NCBI RefSeq assembly: GCF_038025025.1
Contig: NW_027117343.1
Coordinates: 1,488,001 to 1,552,000 of the forward strand
DNA length: 64,000 bases
Source of the DNA: Phyllosticta citribraziliensis
Lineage: Eukaryota
Direction: 5' to 3'
The notes below the pieces were generated by a model. That model was not told where the DNA came from. It did no database searches and saw only the letters and a list, made by a program, of their open reading frames with translations. The position numbers and the translations under genes were made by a program. This document shows positions 26,245-54,037 of the stretch, in pieces (positions within the stretch are counted from its first letter, which is position 1; the number at the start of each line of letters is the position of its first letter).

Positions 26245-26390
26245 CTCCCTGGATCTGGCTGCAACAATGAATGACTGCTTCTTGAGCGTAGCAACAGCAG
26301 TGCGCGAATGCTCCCTAGGCGCAGCTGTTGCAGTAACCGAACGCTCCTGAAATGAAGCTGCTGCAGAGAATTAATGCTCCCTAAGCGCAC
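26245..26390. repeat. Degenerate 36-bp tandem repeat, about 3-4 copies
   Basis: AATGCTCCCTAGGCGCAGCTGTTGCAG / AACGCTCCTGAAATGAAGCTGCTGCAG / AATGCTCCCTAAGCGCAC at 36-nt spacing. Confidence 0.65.
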
Positions 26391-29203: not shown

Positions 29204-29769
29204 AGGTGTATACGAAAGGCAGAATGGTAGGGAGAGAGGAGGCCGAGCGCCAGGTGTGGGGGGTGAGTCAGGACCTCCTGGCTTCACACCATTTGCTTGT
29301 CTCGGGCAGCATCGTCCTTGATGAACGCTTCCCGACCCGCTTGATAGTCTGGCGACGCGCATGCTGGGCGCAGTAATTGGTGTCTTCCATGAGGCCAACC
29401 ATGTATGCCTCGGCCGCCTCTTGAGGCGCCTCCAGCGCCTTGCTCTGCCACGGCGTAATCTGGCTCAGTGCCGGTGCTGTCACGTTAGAGCTGACTTCGT
29501 GGACCTGTATACACACACGTGTCAGCCAAAATTTCAGCTAACTGTATGTATGGATGTACTGACCAGGCACACAAATGGCACTTTTGTCAGGAGCAGGTCG
29601 GCCGAGTTGACGAAACACCAATTGAAAGGCAGTGCGATCTTCCTTGCGATCACGACGAAGGTGTATACGAAAGGTAGAATGGTAGGGAGAGAGAGTTCCA
29701 CACCAGTTTGCCGGGGTTCTTGCTTCACACCATTTGCATGTCTCGGGCAGCACCACCTTTGATGAACGC
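29204..29769. repeat. Pair of 110-125 bp direct repeats (29204-29328 and 29659-29769) flanking the H3-like core
   Basis: Both copies share AGGTGTATACGAAAGGYAGAATGGTAGGGAGAGAG and GCTTCACACCATTTGCWTGTCTCGGGCAGCA..TTGATGAACGC. Confidence 0.9.
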
Positions 29770-29815
29770 GTCCTGAACGATGAACACTTCCTGGGCAGGG
29801 TTGATGCAGTGGCAT
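29268..29815 (-). pseudogene. Divergent histone H3/CenH3-like histone-fold fragment (intron 29505-29563)
   Basis: Spliced product reads IAL...NSADLLLTKVPFVCL|VHEVSS...[36 protein letters not shown], aligning to the H3 core STELLIRKLPFQRLVREI...FQSSA..[29 protein letters not shown]. Helix alpha3 is missing. Confidence 0.82.
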
Positions 29816-32479: not shown

Positions 32480-33610
32480 CTGTAGCAAAGGCGCGCAAAC
32501 TGCAGTCAAGCAGAGCAAGCAGACAAACCTACCCCGTGGAGCCGCACCCCTGACTACGCTCTCTTTCTCCCTTTCCCACGGACAAGAAGACAATCACTGG
32601 ACGCAGCAAGCAAGCAAGCAACTCTACATACCTACGACGGTCGCCGTGCCGTACGCACCGCAGGCAGGCAAGCAAAAGCGACAACGTGTGCAGACCGGCC
32701 AGGCTGGCTGGCTGGCTGGCACGCCGCTGGTGGTCCTGTCGCACAACACCACAACGCATGCTGTGCGTCGTGCGCATACACTCAGGCGAAGACAAAGACA
32801 AGACAAATAAGAAGAGCGACACCGCAATCCGCCATCCGTACCGCAGCTTCGCGGCCGTGCGTATGCTGCGAGGGAGCAAGCAAGCAAGCAAGCCTCGCTG
32901 CTCAACGGCCACGCTGTTTGGCACAGCTCCTGTGCTGTACCGTAGACCAAAGGCATCGACAATGAGCGTGTTTCCAGCGGTAGGTACCTATCCAGCCAGC
33001 CAGCCAGCGAGTGCAGCCAGCCAGCAGCACGCACCCGCGCACCATCAAATTCTCCGCGTAGGTAGGTAGGCGCAAAGATTGTACGCGCTCGTCACGTTGT
33101 TTGTGTCCGTGGCCGAGCTGTATCCACGCCCGTGTCCAGCCTGTTGCTGCGTTGGCTCAGCCAGTCCAGTCCTGCTGTCTGTCTGTCTTGTCTGTCAGAC
33201 CGCACCACAGCGCGACACGCCGACATGCACGACAGCCGGGGAAGGCGGCAAGTCGGAACGACGGGCGGGGATATTGTGTGTGTCTGTCTCCCTATCTGTC
33301 TGTCTGTCTGGCGGCCATGCACGACCGACGTGCGCGACGCAAGCACACCGCACCAACCCACGGCAGACGGACGAAACGCATGGATGACGGGGGCGGGCGG
33401 CACATGGTTAGGTAGCTAGCTGTATGCGGGCGCCGGGGTCGGACAGTCAGATGAAAGTAGGTCGGCCTTCTCGTAAAGTAAGCACAAGCACACCACCAGC
33501 ACCCCACCACACCCCACTTACCTCATCTCACCCCGCGGTCCCCGCGCTTGGGAGACTCTGGGCGCGCTTTTCTACCGCGGATGGCTGGCTGGCTGGCTAC
33601 TCAGACGGCT
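32480..33610. repeat. Tetranucleotide-microsatellite-rich tract
   Basis: Short runs of (GCAA)n, (GGCT)n, (CAGC)n, (GTCT)n and (GTAG)n. Confidence 0.75.
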
Positions 33611-34244
33611 GCTGGCTAATGCGCGGGCGCGGTAAATGCGCGGAGGAGAGCATGCTTCGCGGCCGTAGTCAGTCGAATCACCGGTGCAAAACATCACAAA
33701 TGAGAGAGTTGGAGGGAGGGAAACCGAGATTGATTGCAGGGAGGGCGGGCGCTCCATCGGCACAAGTCCGGAGAATTGGCCGCTGGAGCGCCCGGGGCAA
33801 GAAAAAAAAGTTGTAAGGAGAGACTGTGAGAGTGAACTCGTAAAGCAGGCTAGCATTTCCCTGATTCAGTCAGACGACGCCGGAGCGAGTCGAGACACCA
33901 GCCGCGCGAGGAGACTAGCTGTAAGAGGGAGCGCAAAAGCAGAAGAGCAAAAAAGCAGGAGCACACACGTTCATTCCAGTCGTCAAGAACCGAAAAGAGG
34001 TGTAGAGAAAGAAAGGCCGAATTCATAAGCATGCAGTCCCTAGCCCAAGCCCTGCGAGGCAGTCCTTGGCCCGGTGTGTCCGCCAGTCCGGCGCGAATCG
34101 CAGAATCTACGGAGCCGGATGAAGATGCGAGCGACGTGGTCACAGCTGGGAGAGCAAAGGGGTTGCTCGTGGCTCTCTGGTGCCGACGAGCCGTGACGGG
34201 TCTTGTATCGGTCGCGGTGGCGGACGGGGCGCGGTGGCGGGTGC

Positions 34245-34896
34245 TTAGAAACCGTGGACCTGGGTCGCTGTCAGTTGCAGTTGCGGCGGAGACGAGAGAA
34301 GCAGACGGACCTTGATGGTCTTGGCGTCAAGCTCCAGTCCTTCCTTCTTATCGGTGAGGAATTCCTGGACATCCTTGCGCTGGTCACCCTGGAGCTGGAT
34401 CACCTCGCCCATCTCCGAGTCGTGGACGATGGTGCCATTGCAGGCAAACTTCTTCTTGATGACCTTGAGAATCTTCTTCTGGTCAAACTTCTTGGGCAGG
34501 CCCTGGACCGTGGTCAAGGTCTTGCGGCCATTGCGCTCTGCAGGTGCCACGTATCAGCGGCAGGGTCCAAGGGGCGCGAGGCGCATGACGCAAGAGGGCC
34601 GTCGAGGCTGGTGGGAGGGGACATACGCTGGATACGGATATGGATGTAATTCTGAGACTGCTTGGTCTCGCCTGTGTCCTCGTCGGCCTCGGCGAAGGGG
34701 TCTGGAAAGAGTCAGCGGGGTCAGGGAGGGTCGGTGAGAGGCGGTCGCATCGCGCTGACGACTTTGCCTCGCCGCGTGTTGTCGGCGCGGGGCAGGTGAG
34801 GTTGACGTCGGGCGCGAGGCTGACGAGGGGCTGGGGTGGGTTGAGTGAAGCGGGGCTGAGCGTACCGAAGGTCCTGAGGTTTTCGATAGTTGACAT
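34245..34896 (-). CDS. SUI1: Translation initiation factor eIF1, 115 aa, exons 34866-34896, 34627-34701, 34311-34537, 34245-34259
   Basis: Spliced protein MSTIENLRTFDPFAEADE...NYIHIRIQQRNGRKTLTTVQGLPKKFDQKKILKVIKKKFACNG...IQLQGDQRKDV...IKVHGF. Confidence 0.97.
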
Positions 34897-35477
34897 AAAC
34901 CTGTCTTTTGCGGAGACTCTTTCTAAGTGTGGTGTAGAAAGAAGACGGGGTGAGGGTGTGGCTGAAGCGAGGCAGACAGCTGGTCGTGTGTCGTGGGTGG
35001 TGTTGCGGGTGGTGTGTGTGGAGAGAGTTGGTGTGGTGAAGGTCGACGTGGGCCTCCGCTAAATATATGAATCCGCTTAGCGCCGCCGCCGCAGGAGTCC
35101 TGGCTCTGGCTCTGGCCTGTGCCCAGACCGGCTCAACCACCCAACACCCACTGGTGGCAAGGCAAGGCAAGCGCAGCGCATCCGAACGGAGCGTCAGGTC
35201 AATCTGGCCTCGGGTCGACGCTGGCCTGGCTCACGGTAATGCTTTCTACGGTTGTCGTCTTCTCCTTCGTCTCCATCATCTTTGCAGCCGCGCTCGCTCT
35301 TTGTTCGCCCTACCTGCACGTGCCAGCCGTTCCCGTCTGGAATTACTGCGATACTCATTCCATGAATTGAATTCGACTCCCTGTCACTACTCGAAAAAGC
35401 CCGCCACTTTGCCCAATCCTGGCCGACCCGCACTGTCAGACTATACATGCTTCGCTTCCTCGCCGTACAGCAAACAA

Positions 35478-36200
35478 TCACTGCGCAGGGGGCGCGGCAG
35501 CAGGGGCTTCTGTGCCTGAACCAGCGCCTGCGCGCACCGGCGGAGGAGGCAGAAAAAGAGGCAAATACGACTTATAACGTCAGCTCGAAACGGGCGTTGC
35601 TGCAGCCGCAAAACTCACAACAATCAGGGACATGACTGGTTGGGGCGTTAGTCATGGCTACAAGGTTGCGGGAGGCCAGCAAACTCACACGACATGCCAA
35701 CCGTGAAGATGCTGGGGGTCGAGGCGGCGCTCTTGGTCTCGGGAGTCTCTGCCAGCCAAGTCTGGAGGGCAAAGATGACGGCCGTCCTTATCTTGGGGTT
35801 AGATGATGGGGTGGATGCTTGGTGACGAGCTTACCAGCCAACCATTCTAGGTTTCGGATTTGGAGTTAGCACGGCGCAAATCGAGTGCGACCCGATCGCG
35901 ATGACGAGACTCACTTGTTTCTCGTAAATATCTGGGGGCGTTAGCTAGAGATGGGCTTGGTGTTGCAGCTACTTACGGCGGCCATTGGCAGCGTGCTGGC
36001 CATTGTGCCTGTTTCGACGTCAGCTCCAGCTGCATGGCCAAGGTGTGCGCAAGATGGTCACCGGAAAAGTCTGGATCGGATTTGGCCTCAACCTGGCTGT
36101 AGGGTATTACTGGAGGGGGAGGACATTAGCAGGCGACACGTGATGAGGGAGCCAACGTACTGAGGTCGTCCCTCCGCATGTCCTTCTTTTGCGATGCCAT
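35478..36200 (-). CDS. Small membrane protein, Asterix/PAT10 (WDR83OS, UPF0139)-like, 8 exons
   Basis: Seven GT..AG introns with branch sites give one frame: MASQKKDMRRDDLIIPYSQVEAKSDPDFSGTMASTLPMAAIFTRNKMVGWTAVIFALQTWLAETPETKSAASTPSIFTVGMSFMSLIVSYLPLFLPPPP.... The family call rests on the recalled DxRR..Y / K..xW / VSYL pattern. Confidence 0.8.
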
Positions 36201-36851
36201 GGCGATGAGCGGTGACGGTGACGGCGACGGCTGGGGGAAGCGGGTGCGGGAGGATGCAATGTGATGTGATGGAGAAGTCCCGTCGTGGTGTTTGCTTTGG
36301 CGTCGGCGACGGGAGAGCGGGCCAGCAAGGATGAGCGCCTGGGCCCTAGGAACGGACATGCGATGCGATGCGCTGCGGATACCAGCCTAACCGGACGCAG
36401 ATGACTGCGATAATGACAGACTAGGCCGGGCCATGCTGGAGAGAAGCGTCCTTCGCTCAGTCAGATTGCCCTACACCTCTCCAAATTATATCGACATTCT
36501 CGCAACATCTTCGACTGGCGCGGCTAATGCCCCGAGCCGAGCCAGCAACCCGCCGTAACCTGTCCAGTCCAGTCCGTCGCCGGTCCCGACAGCCCAGGGC
36601 CCCAGAGAGCACACCACCCGCTCGCACCGTTACCTTAGGTTGACTTGACCTGACCTGACCGCACCTCTCCCCTCCTCCACCACCTTCACATTGCCCGCCA
36701 CCCTCCGGTACGTCGCTCTCGGCTTCTTCCACGCCAAACTAACGGAACCGCCCAGATGTGCGACCCTCGTGCCGACTGCCTGCCCCAACCCTCATCGCTG
36801 CCACTGTAAACATGGCTACCGACGCCTGATCACGCATGGACCCAGAGTGCC

Positions 36852-39800
36852 ATGACTTCTCGTCCTGGCCCGTCAACAGCTCAGCGCACCGGCGGTGGGC
36901 CTCTCCAGCGACCGTCGACCCAAGCACGTCCCGTCCCGCCGCAGTCTCATGCCTTTGCTGCCAACTTGCGCCAGCCCGACACCATCATCGACCTGACAGC
37001 CGACGACGCCAAACCACCCGTCGAGAGGAAGCAGCTGCTTGAAGAGTCGACCTGGTTCGCCCCGTCCGCCGCGCAAGATGTCACCAAGCCCACCGCTCGC
37101 GGCAGGCCCCAGGCCGTGTTCGAAGAAACCCCCGACATATCAATTGCTGGGCTCGGAAAGACGACGCCTCACCGTCCAAACATAATTCCTCCCACTGGAA
37201 CGCTGCCTGTTCCTCCGCGACCAGGTTTCCGCGCCCCATCCAGAACCTCGACACCTCTCAGGGTAGCCTCGCCGGCGCCTGCTCCGAAGAAGCCGACCTC
37301 CCACCGCCAAGACCCTCTCTCGACTCCCCCCGAAGCTGTACGAATACGTGGCAAAGCTGTCGACTTTTATCCTTGGAATGGAAACCACCCGGAAGACAAT
37401 TTGACTGCCGACGTGGTCAAGGTGGGCTATTTCGAGGAGAGAAAGGGCCAGGTCGACATTAATGCGGCCAAAACTTTGGTCAGCCCGCAATTGCGCACCA
37501 AGTCGACCCTTCAGACCCTGTCGTCCCTGTTTGTCCAGGCTCTCGAGAAGCGCCAGGCGGCTGGACGCGTCAAGGAAGCCTCCACCTTCAAGCCACCGCC
37601 ACGCATCACCGTCACAGACACCAAGAGGGAGGAATGGCTGCGCGACTTGGCGAATCCTGCCCTCCCGCCGAAGCGCCGGATTCCCCACGGGATTCGCGGT
37701 AAGCTGCTGTTGGAACAGTGTCTTGGCAAGAATATTCCCATCGCGAGGGCCATTTGGCTTGCCAAGTGCGTCGGCGCGAACGAGATGCGCGCTTGGATGA
37801 GAAAGGGCGCCAGCAACCCTGGAGGCATGGGCGGAGAGCTCAAGTGGGTGCGGGAGTGGACAATCTTCGTGGAGCAGTTTGTCGAGGGAACAATCAACAA
37901 TTGCGGGCAGCAAGGCTGGCGGGACAAGATGGACTACACGTAAGTGTCTCTCCTCCCGAAATTCCAAGCTAACGAGACAGAATTCGTCTTTCCACCCAAC
38001 TATACACGGAACGCCTCCTAGACCAAGATCACTTTCTCGACTGGCTCCTACTTTCTCTCGAGACCGCCGAGGTTGACAAACTACCGATATGGTTACTTCT
38101 CATGAGGATATACTGGCAAGACTTGGTTGCAGTTCGTCGCCGTGGTAGGCGGCTTGCCGAGGCGTTGCTTTCGCACCTTGACGCTGTGAGTGTCTCATGT
38201 AATGCTTGGACTCGACTGACTTGCAAGATGACCTCCGATGACACTGCCGAATTCGCCCAGACTTTGGTCGACCAAGTCCGTCAATACGTCTCCAATCTGG
38301 TCACGTCGCACCGCAACTGCTTAATCATCCCCAAGACGTGGAAGAAGCATCAACACATAATCGACGCCTTACAAGCCGACAGCAATCCATCTCTTCAGGC
38401 TGCCGCTCGAGACGTCGTACGAAGAAACGAAAGACTCACTGGCTGGAAGAGCAAATGGGCGCAAAGCAACGCGTCTGCTCAAAAGGCAGTCATTTCGTCC
38501 CTCGACTCACTTTCACTGGACTTGAATATCAACGATCTTTCCGCCAAGTGCCTCGACCTCGTCCCGGACCGCCACAGCCTTGCCATTACCGTCCTTCAAT
38601 GGGCATGTTCTCTATACCGCGAAGGAGAACACCGTCTCTATGTTGCTGCTCGCCTGCTGCGAAAGTGGAGAATGAGAGGAGCGGATATCGACAGCGCCAT
38701 ATTGTCGTTTCTGGGCGACAAACAACGGCTGCGGGACATCAAGCACCGCGACTTCTTCCGACTCGTGGCAGAGCTTGTGCGATCACATCACTTTTCGGTT
38801 GGGAGATATCTTCAATGGTTGATCGCTAGTGGCAGTCTCTTCAACAATTCCGACGGCTGTCCTTTTCGCTTGATTGCCGAGATTCCCTCTCACGACCTCC
38901 CCGAGCATGTGCTCAATTTACGAGAAACAATCCTGACAAGTACGCCGATAGAAGATTCCAACGACCATGTGGATGACATTCTCGCCGAGTTGAAGACCAT
39001 CTTTACCATGAAAGACGGAGAGACCATGTCTTTTGACACTTCCTTCCATCACCTCAGCACCAGTGTGCGATTCGAAATCAGCCATTGGTTACGCCAAGAA
39101 TTAATCTTCCTTCTCGATCCTGCAGCGTTCGAGTTGGATGACGGGATGCGCGACGATTTTGTCCTCACACCGTCCCGGTTTTACACGGTTAGAGATGTCT
39201 TGGAGCAACTCGAAGATTTTGCCATTCTTGCCGATGTCCTGCAGCTCGCACTGGATTCTACCGACACCATGATATATGCCGCAGTTGCAGACACGCTCAA
39301 CTACCACCACGCCGCCTTTGCCGCCATTGGCGCTCTCCTTCCTCTCTACAACAAGCTCGCCGAGCACTATGTCAAACTGAGGCTTGAAAAGCCACTCGAC
39401 CGAGCTTTTCTCCTCGCTCTGGCAGACTTGTGTTGCCGTCTCCAGCGAGATGCCAACTTGGTCTTGCAGCTGACATCTGACCTGACTAGGCTCGACCAAA
39501 AGTCCGCCGTCGCTGCATGTTCCCCTGCGTCGGACAACATGGCCGACACCGGTTCCAGAATGTACTTTGACGAGGAAATCGACCGGATCCTGGCGAGCGG
39601 CACCAGCATGGACGAAAACATGGTAGCCCGTGTTTTTGCCAAGGTCGTCACGCGCATCGAAGAGCAGATTGGCAAGGAAAAGGGCACAAACAGCAAGTTT
39701 GGGCAGTGGTTTCAGCGCCTCAAAGCGTTCGACGAAAAAACGTTTGACCGACACATGTCCGACACCATCTCAAGCCTCCTCATTGGAAACAAAGACCAGC

Positions 39801-41759
39801 TGCTTGGTCAAATGCTTCCATCTGCTGTGGGATCAGGCTCGCTGTCGTTGGAGAATTTCATCCAATTCTCGGAGCGCACCATTACGGTCCTCAAAAAGTC
39901 GGATGCGTCGTTGGCTGCCGAGGCCTCTCTCCGCCTCCTCGATGCCATTCTGCCCATGGACGGACTCAAGGGATTCGGCCTTGTTCAAGAGGTTTACCGC
40001 TACAGACTTGAGCAGGAAAAGCTTTGTCATAGCCAGCAAGGCACGGCGCTGCAACTGGTACGCCAGGCGATCGATCTCTGCACAGATCAGACGCGCCGGG
40101 GTCAGTCTGCCCGCCTCGATGCCTTGCTGCATAGCCAGCGCCTGTTGCAGGTTCTCCGCTACCACGCGCCTCGAACACCCCAAGAATTTTGCGTCATCAT
40201 GGGCATCAGTCCGCCAGTGGGTACTGACGCTTCGCCGCTCGACGAAAAACGGACCAAGGTCATCAAAGAGACGCTTGACTTGATGATGGATCCCAACAAT
40301 GCACTACGTCTCTCGACTCTCGACGCTGATGAGGAAGCCAGCACGCTCGTCAACGCTGCAGATGATCTTTCTGTACCATTTTGTCAACTTGAACTACAGC
40401 TTTTGTTCAAGATTCACACCGAGTCTGACGAAGAGGGCGAGGTTGGTGTAGCAGATGCCATCATTGCCGCCATCAAAGAGTCTGTCGAGTCGGACAAGTC
40501 TGTCTGGTCTGATTTGCTGACCGGACTGGATGTGGAGATGACGAGAAAGGTAAGACATTAGCCCTGGTCTTGGTTCATGCTAACAATTGCAGATTCGAGA
40601 GTACGCCGAGTCCCACATTTTATCCGCCCTGACCAAGATCGCCAAGCATCGCCAGGGAGAAGAGTTGGAACCATGCCTGCAAGATGTACAAGAGTCTCAC
40701 AAGATGTTGCAACGGTACTTGTCCGTCATCAACCTCACCTCTTGGAGTATCGAAGACAGACATCAGGGCCAGACTATTGGCGCCATCTTGGAGCGACTAC
40801 GCTGGCTACTCGAAGTGTTGTCGCAGAACCCAAAACCACTCCCATCTGATGCACTCTGTCCATGGATCCAGGCTCTTCTACATCTCATCATTGTCCACAA
40901 AACACCTTCATCTTCCTCACCATCCACTTCATCCACGGCCTCTCCTCAGCATCAGCCCCACCCCAGCAAACCCAACACGTCCCACCAAGCCTCTCTAATC
41001 TGGATACTGCGATCATACCTCCTCAACTCCGAGCTGCGGCCCTTCCAAGCAACTACAGAGTATGCCCTCGACGTGGCTGCGATGCTGTCGGATGACCTCC
41101 CCGAGGAAGCGCGGAATCAGCTCTGCAAAATGGAGTCGCAGCGGCCCAGTGGTGACGCTCGCATCGCCTGGCTCCTGGGCCGGACGGACAAAAGCAACGA
41201 CATGGCATGGCTCGGCCTCGTCACGCCAGTCCACGGCGCAAATCAAACCAACACCACGACCCCGGCTCCCGCCCAGCCGACGCCCCAACATCAAGCGCGT
41301 GGCGGACTGTTGGCTCAGCACCCAGGGTACCCGCACACGCCAATCCCCCAATACCAACCGCAGCACGCGCACCAGCAACAGGGCTTTTGGCAGGCGCGGC
41401 ACCACCACCAACCCTACCCGCCGTACGCCCACCAGCACCAACGTCTGCACTCCTTCCCCGGCATGCCCGGGCAGGGCGGCAGCGTCGGCTTCGCCGTCGG
41501 TGGCGGCGCCGCGTCACCCGTCGCCTCGAGCACGCCGGCCGCCGCCCCATCTGCCTCGTCGGCGCAGGCCTCCGCCAATGCGGCTGTCGAGTACACCAAA
41601 CCCGTCCCATTCCACCTGCGCCGCTGGGAGATTTTGCCCGACACGTCTGTTGGCGGCGGTGGCGGCGCAGCGGGTCCTGGCGCGTCCTCGAGCGCGGCCG
41701 CGGGCAATGACACGAGTCTCAGCTTGACGCTGTTTGGCGGGCGCAGGGTGGTGCGGTGA
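36852..41759 (+). CDS. SRB8: Mediator kinase-module subunit Med12 (introns 37940-37980, 38186-38227, 40550-40592)
   Basis: Med12 signature TFKPPPRITVTDTKREEWLRDLANP...IPHGIRGKLLLEQCLGKNIPIARAIWLAKCVG; DFYPWNGNHPED; FSVGRYLQWLIASG; C-terminal PFHLRRWEILPD and NDTSLSLTLFG. Confidence 0.93.
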
Positions 41760-41829: not shown

Positions 41830-43100
41830 TGGATTTTGAGCGAGCCGAGCCGAGCGGTGCTGCCGCCGCTGTCGGCCTACATATACACCTTCTCCTTTTT
41901 CTCTTTCTCTTTGACTGCTACAGCTACGGTTCGGCATTGTTGTCTCTATCATCGTCATCAGGTCATCACATCACATCATCAGGTCATCATCTTTTGCCTT
42001 TCTTTTGTTTGCTAGCGTGAGCGTCTTTGCCGTGGAAGCGTTTTCTCTCTTCTCTTTTCTTGCTTTCTTTGAGTTGTGGTAGAGTTGGCTATGGCGAGGA
42101 ATATTCTTGGCACATGTATCTCCTTTGATTGCTATCCCTGAGATATCTAGGTAAGTGGTGGTGGTGGTGGTTGATGCGGGGAGAGCAGACGAGCAGACAG
42201 ACACATGAGAATCTAAAGATGTCATCCGTTGCAACAAACAAGACCCTACTTTCTCTGCCGCGTCGATGCGCTCCAAGCTCTCGTACTAGCCTTCCTGGCC
42301 GCTTCATTTCGTCTTTCGCCTGCACATGCAGTATGGCTCTCTCTCTCTTGGCGCCGCCGCACGCAAACTTCCTCCATCCAGGCAGGCCCCCGCGCGTGCT
42401 TGCTGTTTCCCAGTTTCCCAGCTGTGCGAGCGTGCGTGCATGCATGCATGCATGCAGATCGGGTGGTCGTCAAGCTGCATGTGCGTATGCGGAGGGAGGG
42501 CGTTGTTTGCTTTGCTGTTTTGTTCTGCTGCGCTACTGGTTTGCTGCTTTGTTCTGCCAGCTCAGTTTTTTGACATGCAGTGGTTTGGTTGTGGGCCTTG
42601 CGGCAAGCAGCAATCAACATGCAGCCGTGATGGAAGAAAGAACGCGAAAGCGCGCGCCGAGCGAGAGCAAGAGGAATAGGAAGAGAGCGAAAAAGACGTA
42701 TATACACCTGTCTGTCTGTCTGTCTGTCTGTATATCTATCTATCGGTCTTCCAGCAGCGCTGCTCTGCTGCGGCGCGTGGTTGTCTTTCTCTCTTGCGTA
42801 TATTTCTCACCTGCCTCTTTCTCCTGCTCCTCATCCTCGACGTTTTTAGTATTGGTGTATATACCTACCTACCTCTATCCCCTCCCTACGCCGCCCGCAG
42901 TCTCATGCGCCCTGCCCTGGCTTCGTCGTCTCGTCCTCCCAGCCTACGCCGCGCCTCCTACTCGTTCTACCCGGAGACGGATGCACCGGCGTGCCACAAC
43001 GACACCCTGGCACTGCCGTGCGGTGCGGGTGCTTGGGCTCGGACAGAGCAGCTTCGTGCTCGATGAGGACACGCAGACCGACGGACGGACAGGTATACAA
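41830..43100. repeat. Microsatellite-rich tract downstream of MED12
   Basis: Short runs of (GAGCC)n, (TGCA)n, (TGTC)n, (GTG)n and (ACGG)n. Confidence 0.7.
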
Positions 43101-43309
43101 CCACCGCAGCCCGCTGCCTCCTGTTGTCTGCCTTGTCTACCTCGGTCTCCCAACGCGCACTCACTCGAGGCTTTTCGCTCCGACCTTTCTCTTCCCTTGG
43201 CTTTGGTCGGCGAAGCAACAAAGAGCAAGTCCAAGCAGAGCGGAGCGAGGCGGCGGAGAAGAAGATGGCGATGTCGTGTCTCTCGCTGCGCGCTGCGGGC
43301 TGTGGAACG

Positions 43310-45965
43310 GTACCGCATGATCCCGGCTATCACGTCCGGATGGATGAAGAGGTTGGGCTGGCTGGTGGTATACGTGAGTACGCTCGCGATTTTTGACGAA
43401 AGTATGATGCTGACGGGCTGTCCAGATTTCTTCGCGCACTTCGCCTCGAGGTCTGCGATGTTGTCTGCCGCTTTTTGTATGCTTCCTCGACCACGCCGCG
43501 ATGGCTGCGCGCGGCTACGCTGTCCTACCTTTGGACACAAGCGGGGGCTGGTCGGAGACGTCTGCGCGGACCGTCAGAGGCAGCGAAAGCCATGAGGAAA
43601 GTCGATCCCGGTACCGCAGCTGGATGGAGGAGCCTCATGGCAGGGTATGGCACGGCGTTGTGCTGGTGGTATATGTGAGTACGCTCGCGACTTTTGACGA
43701 AAGAATGATGCTGATGATGTTGATGGTGCTGCGAAGATTTTAAAGCGCGCCGGCTCTTTGCACACTTCGCCTTGAAGTCTGTGACTTTTTTGCGGCTTTT
43801 TGGTTGCCTCCTAGACCACGGCGCCATTACACTTTCCGTCCTCCTGTCCAATTGCGACTCGAGCTCAAGGGCGCGTCGTTTTCCCAAGGCACGAGGAGAG
43901 TCGATCCCGGTACCACAGCTGGATGGAGGAGTCTCATGGCAGGGCATAGCATGGTGTCGTGCTGGTGGTATATGTGAGTACGCTCGCGATTTTTGACGAA
44001 AGAATGATGCTGATGATGTTGATGGTGCTGCGAAGATCTCAAAGCGCGCTGGCATTGCGCTCAGTGTTCTCGGATGTAGTTTGCAGCTTTCTGTTGGCCG
44101 CCCCTCCTCTTCTGCGTCGCAAACCCAAGCGACTGGAGTTCGAAAGCTGGAGGGCGACAATACGCGCCCTCGCCTGCATCGTCATCAAAGACTACGCCCG
44201 TGTGTGGTGGCTTCGCGGCTGTATATGTTCGTTCATCTCCTACAGTGTTGGTCGAGAGACATTGCTGATTTGAGCGAGCAGGTTCCAAAGGTCAATCACA
44301 ATCTCGAATGTGGCAATTCGTTATTCGCCGTCAACAAGAGCTGTATTGCCTCCCTCCTTCAGGAACGACAACAACAGGATGGTGCTTCGCCCTTGCGCAG
44401 ACATATCGCAGTTTTTCGTCTGCCTGCTGAATGATATGCCTCCTTTTGGCAAGGCGACGACACGTTGAGAGCAAAAGCAAAAGCGTCGACAAGCCAGAAC
44501 CTCAAACTGGACAAGGCGTCGTCTATGCTTGAAGGAGCATTCGGCCGCAGGGCTGGCATGCCGGAGCGCTGGGCTTGTTTCACACGAATCGGTAGGTTGT
44601 GGCTGTGGTATATGTGAGTAGAATCTTGATTTTGCTCAAGAGACATTGCTGATTTGACCGGGTAGATTGGCCGATCAAACCCGAAGCCTATTGTGATAGT
44701 TCGACTTTGCCCGCCGCCCAGAGCTTTCATGAATTACAACAACAGAATGGCTCCTCGCCCTTGCGCAAGCATGCCGCAGCTGTTCATTTGCCCCCTGAGC
44801 TCTCCCCTTTTTGCGATGAGAGCAGACAGAGAGTACTTCCTTGACCCTTTGGCGTGGGTCGGTGGAGTGGCAAAAGATAGTAGCTGGATTCTGCTTGTGG
44901 TACATGTAAGTCTACTGGCAGTCTTTCTAGAACGAATGCTGATTCAACTAAGTAGATTCATCCACAATGGCAAGGCTCCAAAGCCGTATGTTCTCTATGG
45001 GCCTTCCACCCTGCAACCTCTGTCGTTGCCGCCCACATGGCTATTCAAGCACATCACAATGGCGCATTGGCTTCTCTTCGTTGCCATCGCGATCGCGGTA
45101 TATGTGAGTGGGTTCGCAGTCTTGCTCCAAAGACAGCGCTGATTTGAACGAGTAGATTCGTTCAAAACAACCTGACTCCTGACCGTTTACGGTCCAAGAA
45201 CCTTCCGGTCCGGCATCTCCGGCCAGCAACGATTACAGAATATTTATTCTGGTCGTCTCTGTGGCTCTGAGACTTTCAGTCAGCGTCCTTGGGGCTGCTA
45301 TGAGGAAGAGACGCAAGACGGTGCTGAGCAGCATGCCAGCCCAAAGCGCGGCTCTTGGCTCTGCTTCGGCATGAGATTTCAGCCGTCATTTTCGGTCTTG
45401 GGCGTACCTTTTTGTTGCTCACGTATACGTACGTTTCTTGACCTTGTTGCTTGAGAAACAACGCTAACACGCAGAAAGACCAGACGGCATCGCGGACACA
45501 TCCATGACCGCGTCTACTCGTCGATGGTAAGCCTCAATCGATCGTTCTGAGAGAATGAAACCTTGGGACTTCGGCGCTCGGCGTCGTTCGGCTGTCTCTC
45601 GTTTTGTCACTGAGATCTCTCCCAGTTCCCATGCATTTGTGGCGCTGTTCCCTTCTTGGACATCCACGTTCTGGTCAATCGGGCATACGACGAGGAAAAA
45701 AATCAGCATTGGTGGAGGGGACCAACGCCACCAAGTTGCTGAGGACAACGTCGACATTCTCCTGGTCTCGGAGGATGAAAGTTATACCACCATCATTCGC
45801 GGGAATTTTGACAACCATCTGGAGGACCTGACGCCTTGCGATGAGCCATTTGAGTCTGCGAACACTGGTCTAGTCGTGTGGCTTGCCGGTATATTTGAAG
45901 TATATGTACGTTCTATTGGCGGCATTTTGCTTGGAAAAATGGTGCTAAATTGTCCGCACAGATTG
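43310..45965 (+). repeat. Array of nine GTATAY|intron units; the first three are recent 300-bp tandem duplicates
   Basis: Introns 43374-43425, 43675-43736, 43974-44035, 44227-44281, 44614-44665, 44906-44955, 45104-45155, 45429-45474 and 45906-45961. Each has a GTnnGT donor (GTGAGT, GTAAGT, GTACGT or GTTCGT), a GCTRA branch site and an AG acceptor. Confidence 0.82.
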
Positions 45966-48900
45966 CTCTGCCCTGGCCTGTCATGAAAACACTTGACAGC
46001 CAGCCTCTGTCGATCCTGCCACACCATTCTTCGCCTGTAGCCTGCCGTCCGCTCTACGTCGCAATTCGGCCTCCTTCCTCGTCGATTCCCTTTTTGACAA
46101 CAGCAGAAGGACCCTCTCACTGTCCATGCGGGCTCGTAATGTGCGTACGACACATGGTATGGACACCCGTGATTTCTGTTTGTGATGGGAGCGGATGCAG
46201 CACTTGCCAACCGGTTCTTGACATCCTTCATGGCTTGGACTGGGGCAATGCTCGGGCAGTAATCGTGAGCGCTTTGGACGGCACGTGGTGTAGACCGGCA
46301 ATTTGGCAGATGCAGACAGTCGAAGACCTTGGTGGTGAGGACCTTTACGTGGCAAATCTCGATCATGCCAGACGCAGTGAACAGGGATCTTCACTGGACG
46401 CTTTGAAGGATCGCCAACTGCCCCAGGGACACATGAGAGGAGCACCGAATCCACGTACAACACCATGATGCACAGGCTGAAAGAGATGGCCGTCAAGGAC
46501 AACCGCGAATTGACAAACCTCGGGCTCTGTTTTGTTCTGGATCTGTCCCCGCTTTCCCCAACAAAGCTGGTTGATTTTTGACGCGCAAAGCATTGGCCAC
46601 ACGACTAGTGGCGGTACCACAGCCAAAGACATTTCTTTCCTTGGTGTCTTTGGAGCTCAAGAAGCAAAAGCTCGACAAACTGGTCGACCAACTGGTCCTT
46701 CTATGGTTCCGATACGCGCTATTCCTGCGCCTCCGTCAATGGTAAATACGACGTCTGCTTCTCGCTTGTTTCCGAGACGGACATGGCAGAACACTCGTGC
46801 CCTTGGTTGTCCTGGCTTCTTCGTCACTCTCAGTGCGGCAGACAAGCTTTGGAGTTCTCAACATCCAGAAGCCACCGGCTTCACTGAGTCGGAAAGCGAT
46901 CATTTCGGGACGAGGCAGTGCTTTGGGAGAGATCGCCTCAACGAAAACCCAGGCTGCGATCTCGGCAGTCCTCCAACCCCATTTGCGGCGCTGTTTGCTT
47001 CCATCCGCTTGACGTGAGAATCTGGAATGCCTTTTGCATGGTGGTAAGCTAGCAACCTTTGACGACTTTCGTGAATCTGGCTGATGAGACTGTTGTAGGG
47101 CCTTCGCTTCCTCAGACGACCTTGAATAGTGCCCTAAAGGAGCTGGCTGTCGACTGCTGTCATTTACTGACTTTGGAGCTCGAAGACCAAGAGTGTGGTA
47201 TTTTCTGCTTCTCCGGGAAGCCATTTACCCTTTCACGGCTCTCCCTTCTGGCGATGCACCGCAACAAGATTTTCGCGCCGGCCTTTGTGCTGGTACCTGT
47301 ATATACGACGACCACCCGCCCTGCCATGTCGACGTGACGACCCAGTTCTCCCTGTTTAACGACAGGCCGGACCCGCAAGCAAATGGGTGTGTCGATTGCT
47401 TCCAGTCCTTTCCAAGACGTGCCAAGTGTCCTGATCCGTGCTATCCCGCACGACTGGGTTTTCTGGCTCATCCACAAACTCCAATGGACGCACGGTCGCA
47501 AAAGAAAGAGCCTCTGAAAAAACCTGTCTTGTCGCAAGCAGACTTTCTCTGGACACGGGAGTTTATTGCGACCAGAATGATTGGAGAGTTCACTCTCGCA
47601 TTGCTGTCAACTCACCAAATCAGGGACATGTTCACACTGCCGCCGGATGAGGATGAAGACGAAGATGATGGGGACCCTCGCCTCGAGCACTCGGCGTGGC
47701 TCATGGCAATCTGCGTCAGAACAAAGTCTACGTGCCTGACACAATGCCTCGTTCAACCGTCCGTTCCTTGTCCATCGCCGACGCTCTTGCACCTTCGAAA
47801 CTCGACGCGAAAGAGAAGCCAAAGCGGCAGACGAGACGAAACGTAAGACGAGCATTCAGTGCGTCTTGTGGTCTGCGCAAACGCTTGACTTCCCACTCCT
47901 CCACCACCCACTGCCCTTGTCAGGCAACACTTCCGGATCCGGACTCTTCGCGCCTGTCATTGTGTTGCTGGCGTTATATACGGCTTTCTTTCTTGCTTCA
48001 GCCTCTCCATCTCGCATGCATTTTCTGCAACAGGGCCACGAGATTGAGAACTGTGGAGTCTTTTTTCTTCATCATCCCTGAATGGTGGATGAAACTTGCA
48101 ACGTTGGGGGCCAATGCGGAATGCTCAGCGCAACCAGGTACACTGGGAAGGGTGAGCGGGTCAGGTTCTTTGTGCTTTTTGGCCCTTTGCTGATGAAACG
48201 ATCGTAGTACACTCTCTGCTCTGCCGCCTTGATCAGGTCTCCGACACAACACGGTCGGTTCCAAAACTTACCGACCAATTGCAGGTATCCGTCGGCCGCT
48301 CCTGGCAGCTTCTACGCTTCTTTAACATTCCTCCCAGGAGAGGATGAGTTGAGCAGCAAGAAAAAATGGCCACATCTCTCGCGATTCTTTCCTGGACTCT
48401 GGTTTATATACAAGCCCTCTCGTCTCAAAAGCCTGCTTTGCTTGCATTTCAAGCCATCCAACCGACCGTCCGACGCGAGATCCCAAGCACTAGCAGAAGA
48501 GAAGTGCCCCGAATATGCCGAAAGATTCACCAATTTCGTCCTTGGGTGAGTGCACTGGCATTCCTGCGCCTGGATTTTAGGCATGGACTGACGATGTATA
48601 TTGTAGGGCCTTCGTCGATGTATAGCTTTTCGCCTCACAACAGGACCTATCCACTTGACCATATCTGGTGGTGTCTGTTGCCGTCTCCTTCCTCCGGAAC
48701 CCTTTGGTTTTCTCGCGCCCTGCCATTGGGAGGAGAAGGAAGAATCCTCCACGCTTCCTGATCTCGGTGAACGTCGGGTCCTCTTCGCATCACGTTTGTA
48801 TACAACCGCTACTCAATCTCGTCCGCGGCATTCCAAGTCAATAGATGCTCCCCGAGTAGCTCTGTGCCCTCATCCGCAACGATGATGTGGTTCCAATGCG

Positions 48901-51857
48901 AAGACCTTCAAAGTCTTCCTCGAGAATTGTTTCTTCTCCAAAATCTTCATTGTCTTTCGCCGTTGTGCTTCGTAAATGTAAGTCTTGAAGCCTTGCTCTG
49001 CCCCATTTGCCTCGACAAGGAGTAAAAACGCTGAAAAGTTAACACAGGATTGAACGATGCAATCGCCACTTCCCAAAACCGCTCGGAGACGAGGTCTTGG
49101 TTCAACGAACAATCACTCCTGAGAGGCAAATCATTGAATACTGGCTTGATGAATGGCAACGACCTGCTGCCCTGTTATACCGTGCAAAAATGGTCGAGAA
49201 GCTGTTCGGTGGCGGGGGAAAACCTGCTTGGCCTTGCCGCCAGCATTAGCAACGCCGGCAGCTCTGACGTCGACGAGCATGCTCGATCCGCATGGGTGAA
49301 CGGCAACTTCATTCAGCTCCCGGACATTACCGCAGACGACGTTGTTACAGAGGAGAGCCTCCCAATACGTCTCACAAGATCACCGTGGGATTCCAGCCTT
49401 CCCATGGACTCAGCCTGGTTGTTTTGTATTGGATCTATCCACTCCAAAAGGAAATTGCGCTGTCTTCACTGAAGCCTCCCATCTTCTGCTGCGTATCCCA
49501 TGCACAGCCTTGTTGCCCTTGTATACCCGAAAGACACCGGATAGTATATTGCACGACACGTCTCGCCGCCCAACTCTGGAAGCTCCGCGGAGTCATGGCT
49601 GACAGCATCAATCGTCATTCCAAATACGGCGACGCTCCTGCCTGAAATTTGCGCGCGGTTTCTGATCCTGTGTTTACGAGAGCTTCTCCACCGGCTTCGA
49701 CGACGTCAATCTTTTCTTGTGTGTCTTGCTACTTCTATATGTAAGTGGCACTTCCTCATTGCGAGTTCGTTGAAAGCCTCCTGTCACCCCTGAACCCATT
49801 ACTCTTCCCCTACACACATGCCCAGACTGACAACTTTCGGAATCCTGAATCCTCATGTTGACCACCATTAGATGTCTGGACAAAATAACCAAACCACCCA
49901 AGCCGCCGCCAACAGAGAGGGAGAAACCAGCCATACCCACATGGCTCTCCTCGAGATTGGCTACGATGCCCTCATCAAGTGCATCTGGGAAGACCATGTT
50001 CACGACCGCCGCAATGCAGGACCCTATGCCTGGAGTGGCTCGACCTGCCGTCTTTTGAGCTTATAATGACTTCCTGACGCAGTGCTGTGCATGGTCGGGC
50101 AATTTTCATGTGGGATGTCACCGCCCTTCGTGCACGCGTTTCCAGTCAGCGGTCTGCGGTATGTCAGGATGCTCCCCGTCGGTGGTACGATCAACCATTT
50201 TCCGAGCGCTGTCAATCGTCTTCTCTAGCGAAGAATACCTGTTGAGGCGCCACCGCGTGTTCCGCTTTCCATGCTCTTGCCTTGGTCCTGGGGAGTTCCA
50301 AAGACACGACCGTTGACGCCGCACGACCGCCTGCTTAAGCTATACGACCGCTTCAAGACGTTGTCACCCGAGACTGACCACGACGAATCAGTCGCGGCCA
50401 GAGAAGTCCAACATGAGGCTCAGGCGGCAGACTATCCTCGTCGGCCCAGGCCCACTTCGAACCGTGCAATACCCTGTTGAAGAAGTATAAGTGAGAAAAC
50501 CGATCCTTTGCATTTCACCCCCTGTTTGGCTGCTTCCCTTGACTTTGCATACACCATTCCGTGAACGTAGGACTGATGAATTCTTTCAGGTACAGCCTAT
50601 ACATCTTTGATCTGGTCCGTGGCTATAGTGGCGCGCGTTCACCATCGCTCTCTGACTGGGAAGACCTGTGCGGAACAATCAGTCCCAAGCCTGCAGACGA
50701 GACGCACCAGGCAACGAATACAGCTGGACCCACGGAGTTGTCGCCTGCGATAAAGACCTCGTCCGTGACCGACTTTCTTTGTTGACAGAAGCTGCCAATC
50801 GTGCCCTCCAGACCATGCGGTCGTCTCGCTTGTCGCAAAAGGGAGCCATCAGAACTTCCATTATATTCTCTCACAGTGCGTGGGAATCTGCAATGCTTTT
50901 GCCACGACCAAATCGCATCGCCCTGGGAGTCACCATTCTCGAATTTCCATCGCAAGTCCAGCTGTCCACGCTGAGGCTCCTCTGCTCATAGCCCGCGTCG
51001 CGATCCATCACGCAGCAGACGAGGTCACGGCCTGGGGCTGTTGCTATAGTCTGTGGCGTCTTCGTGGGAGCATCCGCATCTTGTTCAGTCCCTCGTTATC
51101 GCGGAGTCAATTCAACGTCGATGACTTTTTGACATCATCGCCGTCTCGAGAAAGCCGCATACCTGGCTCTTCCTTCGCCAGTGCCTCCCACTATTCTCTG
51201 CTGCTTCCAACGAAATCGGCTGCTCCCAATACCAAGGAATTCTCAGCCTCTCCAATTACAGCCGAACGCCGCGAGATGCATGGAGCCGTATATATCCCAC
51301 CACCACTGCCTGGGTCGATACGCACCGTCGAACTTCGCCAAGTCCAGCCTCGTCGACGAGAAGACTTCTGCGCTTTTGCTTCGGGAGACTGGACTCGGGT
51401 CTGAGCACTGATTGCAGCAGTATTACGGACGATCCTTTCTGCGCACAGGTTCCGCTCTTTCGAAACGCCTGAGTGGAAGGGCAAACAGCCAGTCGTCGCC
51501 CAGCCATTGATTGTCACTCCAAGGCGCGTATATATGATGATAGACCACACGCGTGGGCTTTGCTCCTCGCCAGAGCCGCTTGAAGCTCCCCACCGTCACT
51601 CTGTATGGGCAAGCGTCTCCCAGCAAGTCATCTCCACACCCAAGGATTGGGATGCAGATGAAGCTTTTCGACTGCCGTTGGACGTTTTCGGAGACGGCAA
51701 CTGACTTTGCAGACAAAGACATCGCCGACAATCTCTCGGGAAAGTTGGACGAGCAACTGCAGCATCTCCCGTTTGAGTTTTCTGAGAGGATGGGAAACAG
51801 CGTCCTAGGGGAAGCTAGACGGCACTGTGTCCTTGGGCCGCCTTTCGGTCAACTGTA

Positions 51858-52495
51858 TCAAGGCCATCGAATGCGCTGATCCCAACCAAGAGTAGATCCA
51901 AGTTCAATGAATAACTTCAGAGCGTCATATTCCAACCCAGCCACTGCCATCTGTTCGCTTATCCACAGGAAGTCGTCCAGATCTGAGCGCCCGTCATCAC
52001 GCCTACCAGCGGCGTGTGACTGCGCCTTCTGGCGTCAAAGATCAGGGAGCGCCGCCACAAAGACAGAACCGAAGGCCACCGGCGCGAAGTTCAACTCCGG
52101 GACAGCCTCGTCCCCAAGACGGAGTAGGTCAATTTGCACTGCCAAGCCGGCAACCGGGGAGTGGTAGACGACGAAGGCTATGCAAATACGTCAATACCGC
52201 CGTAAGAGGAAATTCTGGGACAATCGAAAGCACTACCGCCATCCATCATCACCGAAAACCGCTCGTCTGCTCTTGCCCCTTCCAAGAAAGCCCAAAGCGC
52301 CTCCGCTGTTCCCACCACATCCAAATCGTCGGTCCGCCTTGTGGAACCATGGTACAGCATGGCGGCCCCTCCCACAAGGACGAATACAGATCGGATGGGT
52401 GGTGGTACCAGCATGGATGCTTCTTGGAATGCTTCCTTCAAGGCAGCGAGCAGTACTGGGCTAATGGATGACAAGGTGGTCTCGGCGGAGGACAT
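51858..52495 (-). pseudogene. Nucleotidyltransferase-like (GG...DxD) gene with an in-frame TGA at 52035-52037; intron 52178-52236
   Basis: FVLVGGAAMLYHGSTRRTDDLDVV, then after splicing VQIDLL...VAALPDL*RQKA...RSDLDDFLW. Confidence 0.68.
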
Positions 52496-53483
52496 GGCTG
52501 GATAAGAATGGATTGTTTGAGGATGCTAAGATATGCTGGTCGGTGGGATGGAGATGGTGATTCAGAATAAAAGGGGCGTCAAAGCAAATGAATCTTCTTC
52601 AGAGACATGCTGTTCTGCCATTGCTCCTTCTCAAGTCTATTGGTTGCCCTTGAAACCCTTGCACCACTGCTTTCTACTTTGGGTCATTGCTGGCGACGAC
52701 TCCGCGTCCTATCAGCTCCTCGACCCGGTTGTCTGAACTTTCCTCGATACCGGTATCCTCAATTGTTGGCAATGACAGAATATATCTCATTCCGGAGCTG
52801 CGGGCTGCAGACTTGGACAGCCTTCTTTCTACCGACAGGTGAGAAGAGCATGATGTCGTCACGAAATCTCTGATGCGACACGCACAACCACTGCCAGCCG
52901 CGTACGTATGGGCGGTGTTCGGGAAATAGCGTGGCGTGTAAATGCTGCAAGCTTCGGGAGTCCCTTCGTTGGTGGTCTGGGTGAACCAGAGCCGTGATCT
53001 ATCGATAAATTAGTTTTCAAAAGCAGGACAATGAGAAAGGCAGACTTTTACAGAATGGAGGTATGGTGTGATGTTGGTGGTGAGAATCCAGTACCTTTGC
53101 TCTGTCTTCCTGAGCGATTCAACAACTATTGCCTTTGCCTTCTTCCGTCTTCACGCGTCGGTGCCGCCGTACCGAGACGGTATGACCTTGCTGAAGCATC
53201 TCAGGCACTCCATCGTCGCGCGAGCGTGCCTCCCTACTCAATCGATCAGATATATCTCCTTCAACCGTGCCTGGGCTCTTATTTCCGTCGCCATCTCGGT
53301 GTGATGGACGGGATCCAACGTCAGAAACGGTTGGTGGATGGCGTGTTCGCTGGCTGGCCTCCAAAAAAACGTTGAATGTAGACGTGTCAGGTAGCTTGCA
53401 CATGTTGCTATCCCTGTAGGTGTCAACCATCCACTGTTGAAATTCTTCGCGATGACTGAACAATTCAGGTTGGCTAACGACTC

Positions 53484-53604
53484 GGACCACAGTTCAAAGA
53501 GAAAGAACAAAAAAAGTGTCCCTTTGCAGACAACATGGGCCACGGTTCAAAGAGAAATCCAACAAAAAGGGTCGCTTTGCTGACAACATGGACCACAGTT
53601 CGAA
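53484..53604. repeat. Tandem repeat of about 54 bp, about 2.3 copies
   Basis: GACCACAGTTCAAAGAGAAA...CTTTGCAGACAACATG is repeated. Confidence 0.85.
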
Positions 53605-53615
53605 TGAGGGAGCAG

Positions 53616-54037
53616 TGTTGTGGGAGGAGCTGTTACGGATTCAGCAGGTGGAGGACTTGATGGGAGCAGGGAGTAGGCTTATGTAAGCTAGATAGTCACG
53701 TGCTGCTCGCTCAGCCGCGGCGGTGACGCGCGACCCTTCGCACCACCTTAATAAAACAACCTTAGCACCTCATCTACTCACTATCTATAATAGGAGCTCT
53801 TGGCACCAAGAGCTCCTGACCTAAGCCGGCGCTAGGCCATATGGGGACGTCAACCGTACAGTCTAGCTAGACCGAACAATTATCTACTCGCAGAACAACT
53901 GGGTGTCTACCGCGACTCGACAAGTTGTTCAAGGCCTCCAGATCCGTTTTTTCTTTCTTGTTTTGACCCTGTCCGACGCAGCCACACTTGTTCCAGTACA
54001 GACCACGATCAAATAACACATCGGATCTCCCCTAACA
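53616..54037. mobile_element. Possible solo LTR relic
   Basis: TGTT...AACA ends with a 9/11 terminal inverted match (TGTTGTGGGAG / CTCCCCTAACA), TpA-rich interior, AATAAA and TATAAT. No target-site duplication found. Confidence 0.45.

Follow-up and report, generated by a model that had tools for sequence, protein, structure and literature searches.

The stretch analysed here, referred to as the window, comprises 64,000 nucleotides of the genome of Phyllosticta citribraziliensis (contig NW_027117343.1, positions 1,488,001 to 1,552,000), and all coordinates below count from its first letter. It carries a Med12/SRB8 gene on the plus strand (36810-41759, recognised by Pfam) and, downstream of it, an array of nine short introns on the same strand (43368-45961). 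Each intron is directly preceded by an exon-final hexamer, which reads GTATAT in six units, GTATAC in units 1 and 8 and GTACAT in unit 6. Two public gene models are placed on the locus, P0001 (459 aa) and P0002 (598 aa), whose exons and frames conflict with each other. The exon 3' of unit 9 is 100% identical to a Phyllosticta citribraziliensis "uncharacterized protein", and this DNA is also spanned by another model of that species. No RNA data set is listed for 43100-46500; one public run, X1, which is present as contigs, contains parts of it. The features of the locus are as follows, with each unit given as hexamer plus intron.

43368-43425, plus strand: unit 1; GTATAC (43368-43373), intron 43374-43425 (52 nt), next exon begins ATT; donor and acceptor used in P0002.
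43669-43736, plus strand: unit 2; GTATAT, intron 43675-43736 (62 nt, acceptor AAG), next exon begins ATT; donor used in P0002.
43968-44035, plus strand: unit 3; GTATAT, intron 43974-44035 (62 nt), next exon begins ATC.
44221-44281, plus strand: unit 4; GTATAT, intron 44227-44281 (55 nt) with the weak donor GTTCGT, next exon begins GTT; in neither public model.
44608-44665, plus strand: unit 5; GTATAT, intron 44614-44665 (52 nt), next exon begins ATT; leave-one-out E 3.9e-06.
44900-44955, plus strand: unit 6; GTACAT, intron 44906-44955 (50 nt), next exon begins ATT; donor and acceptor used in P0001.
45098-45155, plus strand: unit 7; GTATAT, intron 45104-45155 (52 nt), next exon begins ATT; leave-one-out E 5.3e-07.
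45423-45478, plus strand: unit 8; GTATAC, intron 45429-45478 (50 nt) by the joint in run X1; acceptor 45474 in the earlier annotation from the letters alone and in the public models.
45900-45961, plus strand: unit 9; GTATAT, intron 45906-45961 (56 nt), next exon begins ATT; donor and acceptor used in both public models.
45527-45625, plus strand: extra intron outside the family, 99 nt; the preceding exon ends ...GATG, without GTAYAY; indicated by a loose contig end in run X1 and spliced in both public models.
43426-43973, plus strand: exons E1 (43426-43674) and E2 (43737-43973), homologous copies; indels of 1, 15 and 25 nt, local alignment z = 36.
44282-44905, plus strand: exons E4 (44282-44613) and E5 (44666-44905), homologous copies; numerous indels of lengths other than multiples of 3, z = 20.
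45504-46468, plus strand: longest frame that fits the observed unit 8 joint; first ATG at 45504, crosses the 99-nt and the unit 9 introns, stop at 46466-46468; no known family.

All nine introns possess ordinary fungal signals, i.e., a GTRNGT-type donor, a CTRAY branch site and an AG acceptor. With the acceptors as initially assigned, their lengths from unit 1 to unit 9 are 52, 62, 62, 55, 52, 50, 52, 46 and 56 nt, and the units follow each other head to tail on the plus strand with donor-to-donor spacings of 301, 299, 253, 387, 292, 198, 325 and 477 nt. The 12-mer pattern GTAYAYGTRMGT has eight matches in the window, all of them inside the array, where 0.04 are expected and none of 100 shuffles reaches eight; unit 4 escapes the pattern because of its weaker donor GTTCGT. 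A looser pattern (GTAYAY followed by GT[AGT]NG[TC]) finds nine plus-strand matches, all in 43368-45911, and two matches on the minus strand, one being a palindromic overlap at unit 8 and the other lying at 41886. Nine of the ten GTAYAY sites on the plus strand of 43300-46000 run straight into a donor. Across the whole window a loose regular expression for introns returned 79 candidates (33 on the plus and 46 on the minus strand), and GTAYAY precedes none of the 66 that lie outside the array.

Within the hexamer 51 of the 54 letters are identical across the nine units, an invariance that equals that of the fixed positions of the donor itself (GT, G5-T6). Columns -6 to -1 agree in 9, 9, 9, 8, 9 and 7 of the nine units, while columns -12 to -7 agree in only 4-8, so that similarity fades outward from the junction. 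On the other side of the intron, ATT or ATC stands directly 3' of the acceptor in seven of nine units, with unit 4 (GTT) and unit 8 as exceptions. An earlier sequence-only reading of this DNA had reported nine donors, each right after GTATAT, GTATAC or GTACAT, and seven acceptors followed by ATT or ATC; pattern search and counts bear out the former, and inspection of each junction the latter. Its statement that nothing but the hexamer at the junction and the signals for splicing is common to all nine units likewise agrees with the column counts and with the profile comparison given below.

Two peculiarities of the junctions may be noted in passing. The exon-final AT and the intron-initial G form an ATG that is lost on splicing, and intron retention would in five of the nine units produce ATG-TGA or ATG-TAA, i.e., a start followed immediately by a stop (43672-43680, 43971-43979, 44611-44619, 44903-44911 and 45101-45109). 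At unit 8 a perfect 10-nt palindrome (45421-45430) surrounds GTATAC, and the minus strand thus displays GTATAC plus a donor-like GTGAGC, which is probably a coincidence.

Run X1 (share 0.22), the RNA label of which is a guess of the index, provides six contigs at 99% identity or higher on 42500-47500, which cover 14 of 30 bins and one of the nine family junctions. One contig extends from 45282 through the unit 8 hexamer to 45428 and there joins to 45479, skipping 50 nt with GT..AG ends at a depth of 23.4 and with 48 letters on the shorter side. The donor of this joint is exactly that of unit 8 after GTATAC, and the acceptor lies 4 nt past the one given in the sequence-only reading and in both public models. 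The intron coordinates of that reading consequently stand for all nine donors but not for the acceptor of unit 8, which the RNA-type joint places at 45478 instead of 45474. The observed junction reads GTATAC^ACC (here and below, ^ marks the position of the intron). At 45526 the match of this contig breaks off, and its nine remaining loose letters equal 45626-45634, which shows the further 99-nt intron at 45527-45625. With acceptor 45478 the frame shared by both public models hits a stop ten codons on, and given this acceptor the array sits in a leader or non-coding part, upstream of the ATG at 45504. A TATA-box promoter element was also considered and rejected for unit 8, the only unit covered in this respect, as the hexamer there lies inside the spliced X1 contig and not upstream of a start.

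Taken together, the public models use eight of the nine family donors, with unit 4 in neither. Between them the hexamer is translated in three phases (G-I-x, W-Y-I and V-Y), and P0002 splices the unit 5 donor onto the unit 6 acceptor. Such models are predictions and no independent proof of splicing. The two models are probably not real proteins, and the locus should serve as a warning about them.

The coding capacity of the array was assessed with a codon-usage log-ratio trained on those genes of the window that have Pfam support; these and other trusted frames score 0.04-0.29 per codon in frame. Exons E1-E8 score from -0.30 to +0.21 over all three frames, mostly at or below zero, and only 45650-45875 looks coding. 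In the V-Y frame, stops occur 12 codons after unit 2 and 8 codons after unit 7, as well as 8 and 6 codons before units 3 and 5, respectively. Indels between exon copies in the E1/E2 and E4/E5 alignments measure 1, 2, 4, 5, 22 and 25 nt, and four of eight exon lengths are divisible by 3 (p = 0.26), which is no signal. The stops near units 2, 3, 5 and 7 together with the codon scores support the earlier claim that the exons share no maintained reading frame. Long tracts without codon-usage signal on either strand, despite frequent stop-free frames, extend over 18000-36000 and 42000-54000 and flank the conserved Med12 gene.

Homologues of the putative product could not be found. A phmmer search of the 598-aa model against 1.84 billion representatives matched only the two models of the locus itself, within a scope in which relatives of 50-90% identity and 329-1046 aa could hide inside a 50% cluster. 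Word-based searches found no homologue among proteins of 30-327 aa and, for the last exon, nothing among proteins of 295-2000 aa beyond the locus's own models. As a control, the neighbouring Med12 frame matches P. citrichinensis (96%), P. citriasiana (93%) and P. capitalensis (87%). Among 20 long open frames submitted to Pfam, those in 42129-47846 have no match. The ESM Atlas model of P0001 (459 aa) has a mean pLDDT of 0.24, and the Atlas returned no usable feature match and structure rows with TM of 0.37 at most. Rfam gave no match at E <= 1 in 42500-48000, and neither a snoRNA nor another known RNA was seen there. An intact homologous repeat protein, named by the sequence-only reading as a finding that would refute it, did not emerge from any of these searches. 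The transcript is apparently restricted to the species and either poorly coding or non-coding.

The kinship of the units is most evident where whole exons can still be aligned. Exon pair E1/E2 aligns at z = 36 and E4/E5 at z = 20, and the remaining 43 of 45 pairs have z <= 3.4. Wherever exons align, their introns are in register, and exon and intron were therefore copied as one. Among the introns, {1, 2, 3} and {4, 5, 7} form groups of homologous members. Units 1-3 are 87-98% identical: a 53-nt core of units 1 and 2 is 94% identical, and the intron of unit 3 equals that of unit 2 at 61 of 62 positions. The cores of units 5 and 7 share 77% identity over 62 nt. A leave-one-out profile of the introns without flanks recovers units 4, 5 and 7 at E of about 1e-6 (2.4e-06 in the case of unit 4), and a profile including the flanks recovers all nine units at E 5e-10 to 5e-17, the next best match in the window having E 0.0012.

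In the pairs compared, introns are more similar than the exons around them. Units 1 and 2 have an identity of 0.87 in the intron, 0.48 in the upstream exon and 0.64 in the downstream exon; the corresponding values are 0.98, 0.91 and 0.54 for units 2 and 3, and 0.67, 0.56 and 0.61 for units 4 and 5. Pooled over matched columns, 141 of 166 intron positions (85%) are identical versus 395 of 634 exon positions (62%; Fisher p = 1e-8). The unusual point of this locus is that the introns and the junction hexamer outlast the exons in an orphan, apparently non-coding transcript. This pattern fits a constraint on splicing rather than on coding, and gene conversion would look alike.

Repeat-induced point mutation was considered as the main force behind the TA-rich hexamer. 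Units 2 and 3 (43587-43754 versus 43886-44053), the two youngest, differ by 13 transitions and one transversion, while older pairs show ratios of 9:5 and 12:5. Despite this 13:1 excess of transitions the regional indices are normal in the array windows (TpA/ApT 0.50-0.73, second index 1.30-1.42), and we reject this explanation. Folding of the nine units, each including 20 nt of flank, gave no stable structure (z between -1.08 and +1.88), and a metagenome scan with the strict unit pattern returned 0 loci.

We favour, with a probability of about 60%, an origin of the array by serial tandem duplication of one exon-plus-intron block in a species-restricted, poorly coding or non-coding transcript downstream of Med12. 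A block of approximately 0.2-0.5 kb, consisting of a small exon and its intron, would have been copied in series, head to tail. The founder exon, as the ancestor of all internal exons, would have begun with ATT and ended with GGTATAT; with exon ends shared by descent, the introns would therefore always follow GTATAY, and splicing would always rebuild GTATAY^AT. After duplication the exon interiors would have drifted freely by substitutions and frameshifting indels, with the introns and the last six exon letters being kept. We infer that units 6, 8 and 9 are of the same origin as the others. The hexamer may have been kept as context of the 5' splice site, for example as a weak second register of U1 pairing (GUAUAUGU) six bases upstream, or by short-tract gene conversion. 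The pattern is real and statistically solid, and its origin is mostly ordinary.

Several observations weigh against serial duplication as a full account. The intron interiors of units 6, 8 and 9, and of the group 1-3 versus the rest, compare at E 0.26-2.1, in the range of unrelated sites of the window (0.02-3.6); the interior of unit 6 resembles other units no better than any intron does (leave-one-out E 0.86). The exons of units 6, 8 and 9 likewise do not align with the others, and common descent of all nine units would have to be read from the hexamer, position, strand and spacing. Descent alone leaves unexplained why 51 of 54 hexamer letters are identical beside randomised neighbouring letters. 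Moreover, the contig with the splice joint covers one of nine junctions and comes from a run whose RNA nature is guessed.

The sequence-only reading had instead proposed selection on a motif rebuilt in spliced RNA. In this explanation, which we consider unlikely, splicing creates a functional RNA element, and the junction GUAUAY^AU(U/C) is selected, e.g., as a protein-binding (UA)n site such as those known from yeast 3'-end signals. In a variant of this view, the uniform junctions allow any donor to join any later acceptor with the same resulting junction, in line with P0002, which joins the unit 5 donor to the unit 6 acceptor. The hexamer indeed matches the donor GT and G5-T6 in invariance, AT follows seven of nine acceptors versus 15 of 66 in the background (binomial p = 7e-4, uncorrected for shared descent), and the exons lack a coding signal, so that the conserved thing is not a protein. 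However, the AT half is not rebuilt at units 4 and 8, the latter having GTATAC^ACC as its observed junction, and shared descent predicts the same pattern without any function of the junction. Selection on the rebuilt motif is hence not borne out, as tandem copies that inherit the same exon ends would look the same.

Uninterrupted copies of the motif in a "left array" had been taken as further support for such an element. Both copies exist, as GTATATATT occurs on the minus strand at 19018-19026 and 28263-28271, but their flanks have no similarity to the nine-unit array. GTATAYATY occurs six times in the window, where 0.14 are expected, and five of these sites are on the minus strand in 19-31.4 kb; of the 26 TATATA sites that the window has, 17 fall within 19-32 kb. 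The left GTATAYATY sites are only weakly linked to the array because they form part of this general excess of TATATA, and the same holds for the uninterrupted copies, which speaks against the spliced element. We also reject the left region as a source of the nine-unit array, since its excess of GTATAYATY reflects TATATA clustering and its flanks are pyrimidine-rich, unlike those of the array.

It is similarly doubtful that splicing itself is the conserved product of a non-coding RNA gene, be it as the nine excised introns or as the identical GUAUAY^AU junctions, with the exons acting as drifting spacers. If true, this would constitute a fungal case of "introns first, exons expendable", in which interchangeable sites permit combinatorial exon skipping.

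A protein-level motif is quite improbable. According to this explanation each unit codes for the last part of a segment that is hydrophobic and of membrane type (...V-V-Y^I-basic), with the intron at a conserved phase-0 position, and the units would be either repeats of one protein or a row of genes for small membrane peptides. The GTA-TAY frame is mostly hydrophobic before all nine donors, with I plus K, R or S often following; E1 and E5 are fully open in this frame, and unit 7 gives a 23-codon frame from ATG to stop across its intron. Nevertheless, stops adjoin units 2, 3, 5 and 7, frameshifting indels separate the exon copies, codon scores are about zero or negative, and the hexamer stands in three phases in the public models. 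Homologues and a Pfam match were not found in the searches described above, and the Atlas model reaches a pLDDT of only 0.24. The hydrophobic runs, of 6-14 residues, lack the length and the evenness of a uniform membrane helix, and V, G, L and W arise from GT-rich DNA in any frame. The V-Y-I micropeptide, offered as an alternative in the sequence-only reading, accordingly meets opposition from stops, frameshifting indels, codon scores at or below zero and the lack of detected homologues.

Local spread of a mobile or reverse-spliced, introner-like intron into GTATAY^AT targets, instead of block duplication, is very unlikely. It could account for the fact that similarity between most units is limited to the intron and the letters right beside it, with exons that cannot be aligned, and introner-like elements have been described in Dothideomycetes (PMC4457414). 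Yet where exons still align, the intron was copied along with the exon. The copies are confined to one row of 2.6 kb on one strand, with E 0.0012 for the best other match in 64 kb. The introns are short (46-62 nt) and without a stable fold, unlike introner-like elements (PMC3609843), and neither such elements nor the sister introns of Hypoxylon have a conserved flanking exon pattern (PMC8469720).

Least probable of all are tandem alternative donors, in which GTATAY would serve as a second 5' splice site 6 nt upstream and yield in-frame +/-6-nt isoforms, or act as a U1 decoy or enhancer: each hexamer does begin with GT exactly 6 nt ahead of the main donor, but at intron position 5 GTATAY has no G, a letter retained in all nine main donors, and the single observed joint, at unit 8, takes the downstream GT at 45429 and not the hexamer GT, contrary to this suggestion of the earlier reading, although contigs drop rare variants, so that minor use is possible.

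The window contains further repetitive and intron-like features. In 19000-32400 five minus-strand GTATATAT[CT] sites have pyrimidine-rich sequence ahead of them and might serve as TATA boxes for minus-strand transcripts that lack annotation. The minus strand of 26855-31930 possesses a second, different family of related short introns with donor GTGAGTGCC, branch region GAGACTGAC and an acceptor CAG followed by G; this region has tandem repeats at 29155-30353 and neither Pfam matches nor codon-usage signal. Downstream of the array, two intron-like sites on the plus strand (47044-47098 and 48546-48606) share the ending ...TTGTAG and, right after it, an identical run of eight exon letters, a hint that more blocks of exon and intron were duplicated there. 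A direct repeat of about 220 nt with 81% identity links 12561-12779 and 13202-13417, and small tandem repeats are located at 53484-53601 (period 53, 2.2 copies) and 7657-7691 (period 13, 2.7 copies).

Serial duplication of an exon-plus-intron block can be compared with several known systems. Introner-like elements are, like the array introns, related spliceosomal introns in the same fungal class that degenerate to ordinary-looking introns, and they are scattered over unrelated genes in hundreds of copies, exceed regular introns in length and are predicted to fold stably (PMC4457414; PMC3609843). The array introns differ in being short, unstructured and arranged in one row, with shared flanking exon letters, and no copies of them exist in the window beyond the array. 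We do not assign them to the introner-like class, as they are short (46-62 nt) and have no stable fold (z -1.08 to +1.88).

The sister introns and stwintrons of Hypoxylaceae are likewise sequence-related canonical introns that multiplied in a fungal genome; they have terminal inverted repeats of 45-55 nt and occupy unrelated sites, and the 15 exon letters at their borders show "no similarity or pattern" (PMC8469720). The array has no inverted repeats, and its bordering exon letters are its most conserved part. A stwintron can be rejected for the array itself: the whole hexamer already stands ahead of the intron, and position 5 of the rebuilt GTATAYAT is A instead of G, so that no canonical donor results.

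In gene families for venoms and toxins conservation is higher in the introns than in the exons, and the exons remain in frame under diversifying selection. The array shares this inverted order of a conserved intron and a variable exon, but its frames are broken by indels and carry no coding signal. In the absence of a protein constraint on the exons, splice signals and six exon letters are what survives in the array. Should the hexamer be needed for splicing, it would represent an element of 5' splice-site recognition that lies on the exon side, in a Dothideomycete; otherwise the locus would be a clean natural record of the decay rates of exon and intron in a duplicated block. Neither this locus nor a hexamer conserved at exon ends ahead of tandem fungal introns was found described in a literature survey conducted mostly at the level of abstracts.

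The duplication that we favour has its counterparts in tandem exon duplication and in intron gain by tandem genomic duplication, where, as in the alignable pairs of the array, neighbouring blocks on the same strand are copies that bring their own splice sites. New introns can be a by-product of segment duplication (PMC4974935), and in Zymoseptoria tritici tandem duplication within genes is said to explain under 1% of the gains of single introns (PMC4457414). In contrast to cases of tandem exon duplication, the array would have gone through about eight rounds of copying in a space of 2.6 kb, inside a transcript without detectable coding constraint, and its exons have mostly decayed past alignment, while hexamer and introns persist. 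Tandem duplication is an accepted but rarely documented source of new fungal introns, and the locus downstream of Med12 would be a compact example of it, with about eight rounds in 2.6 kb.

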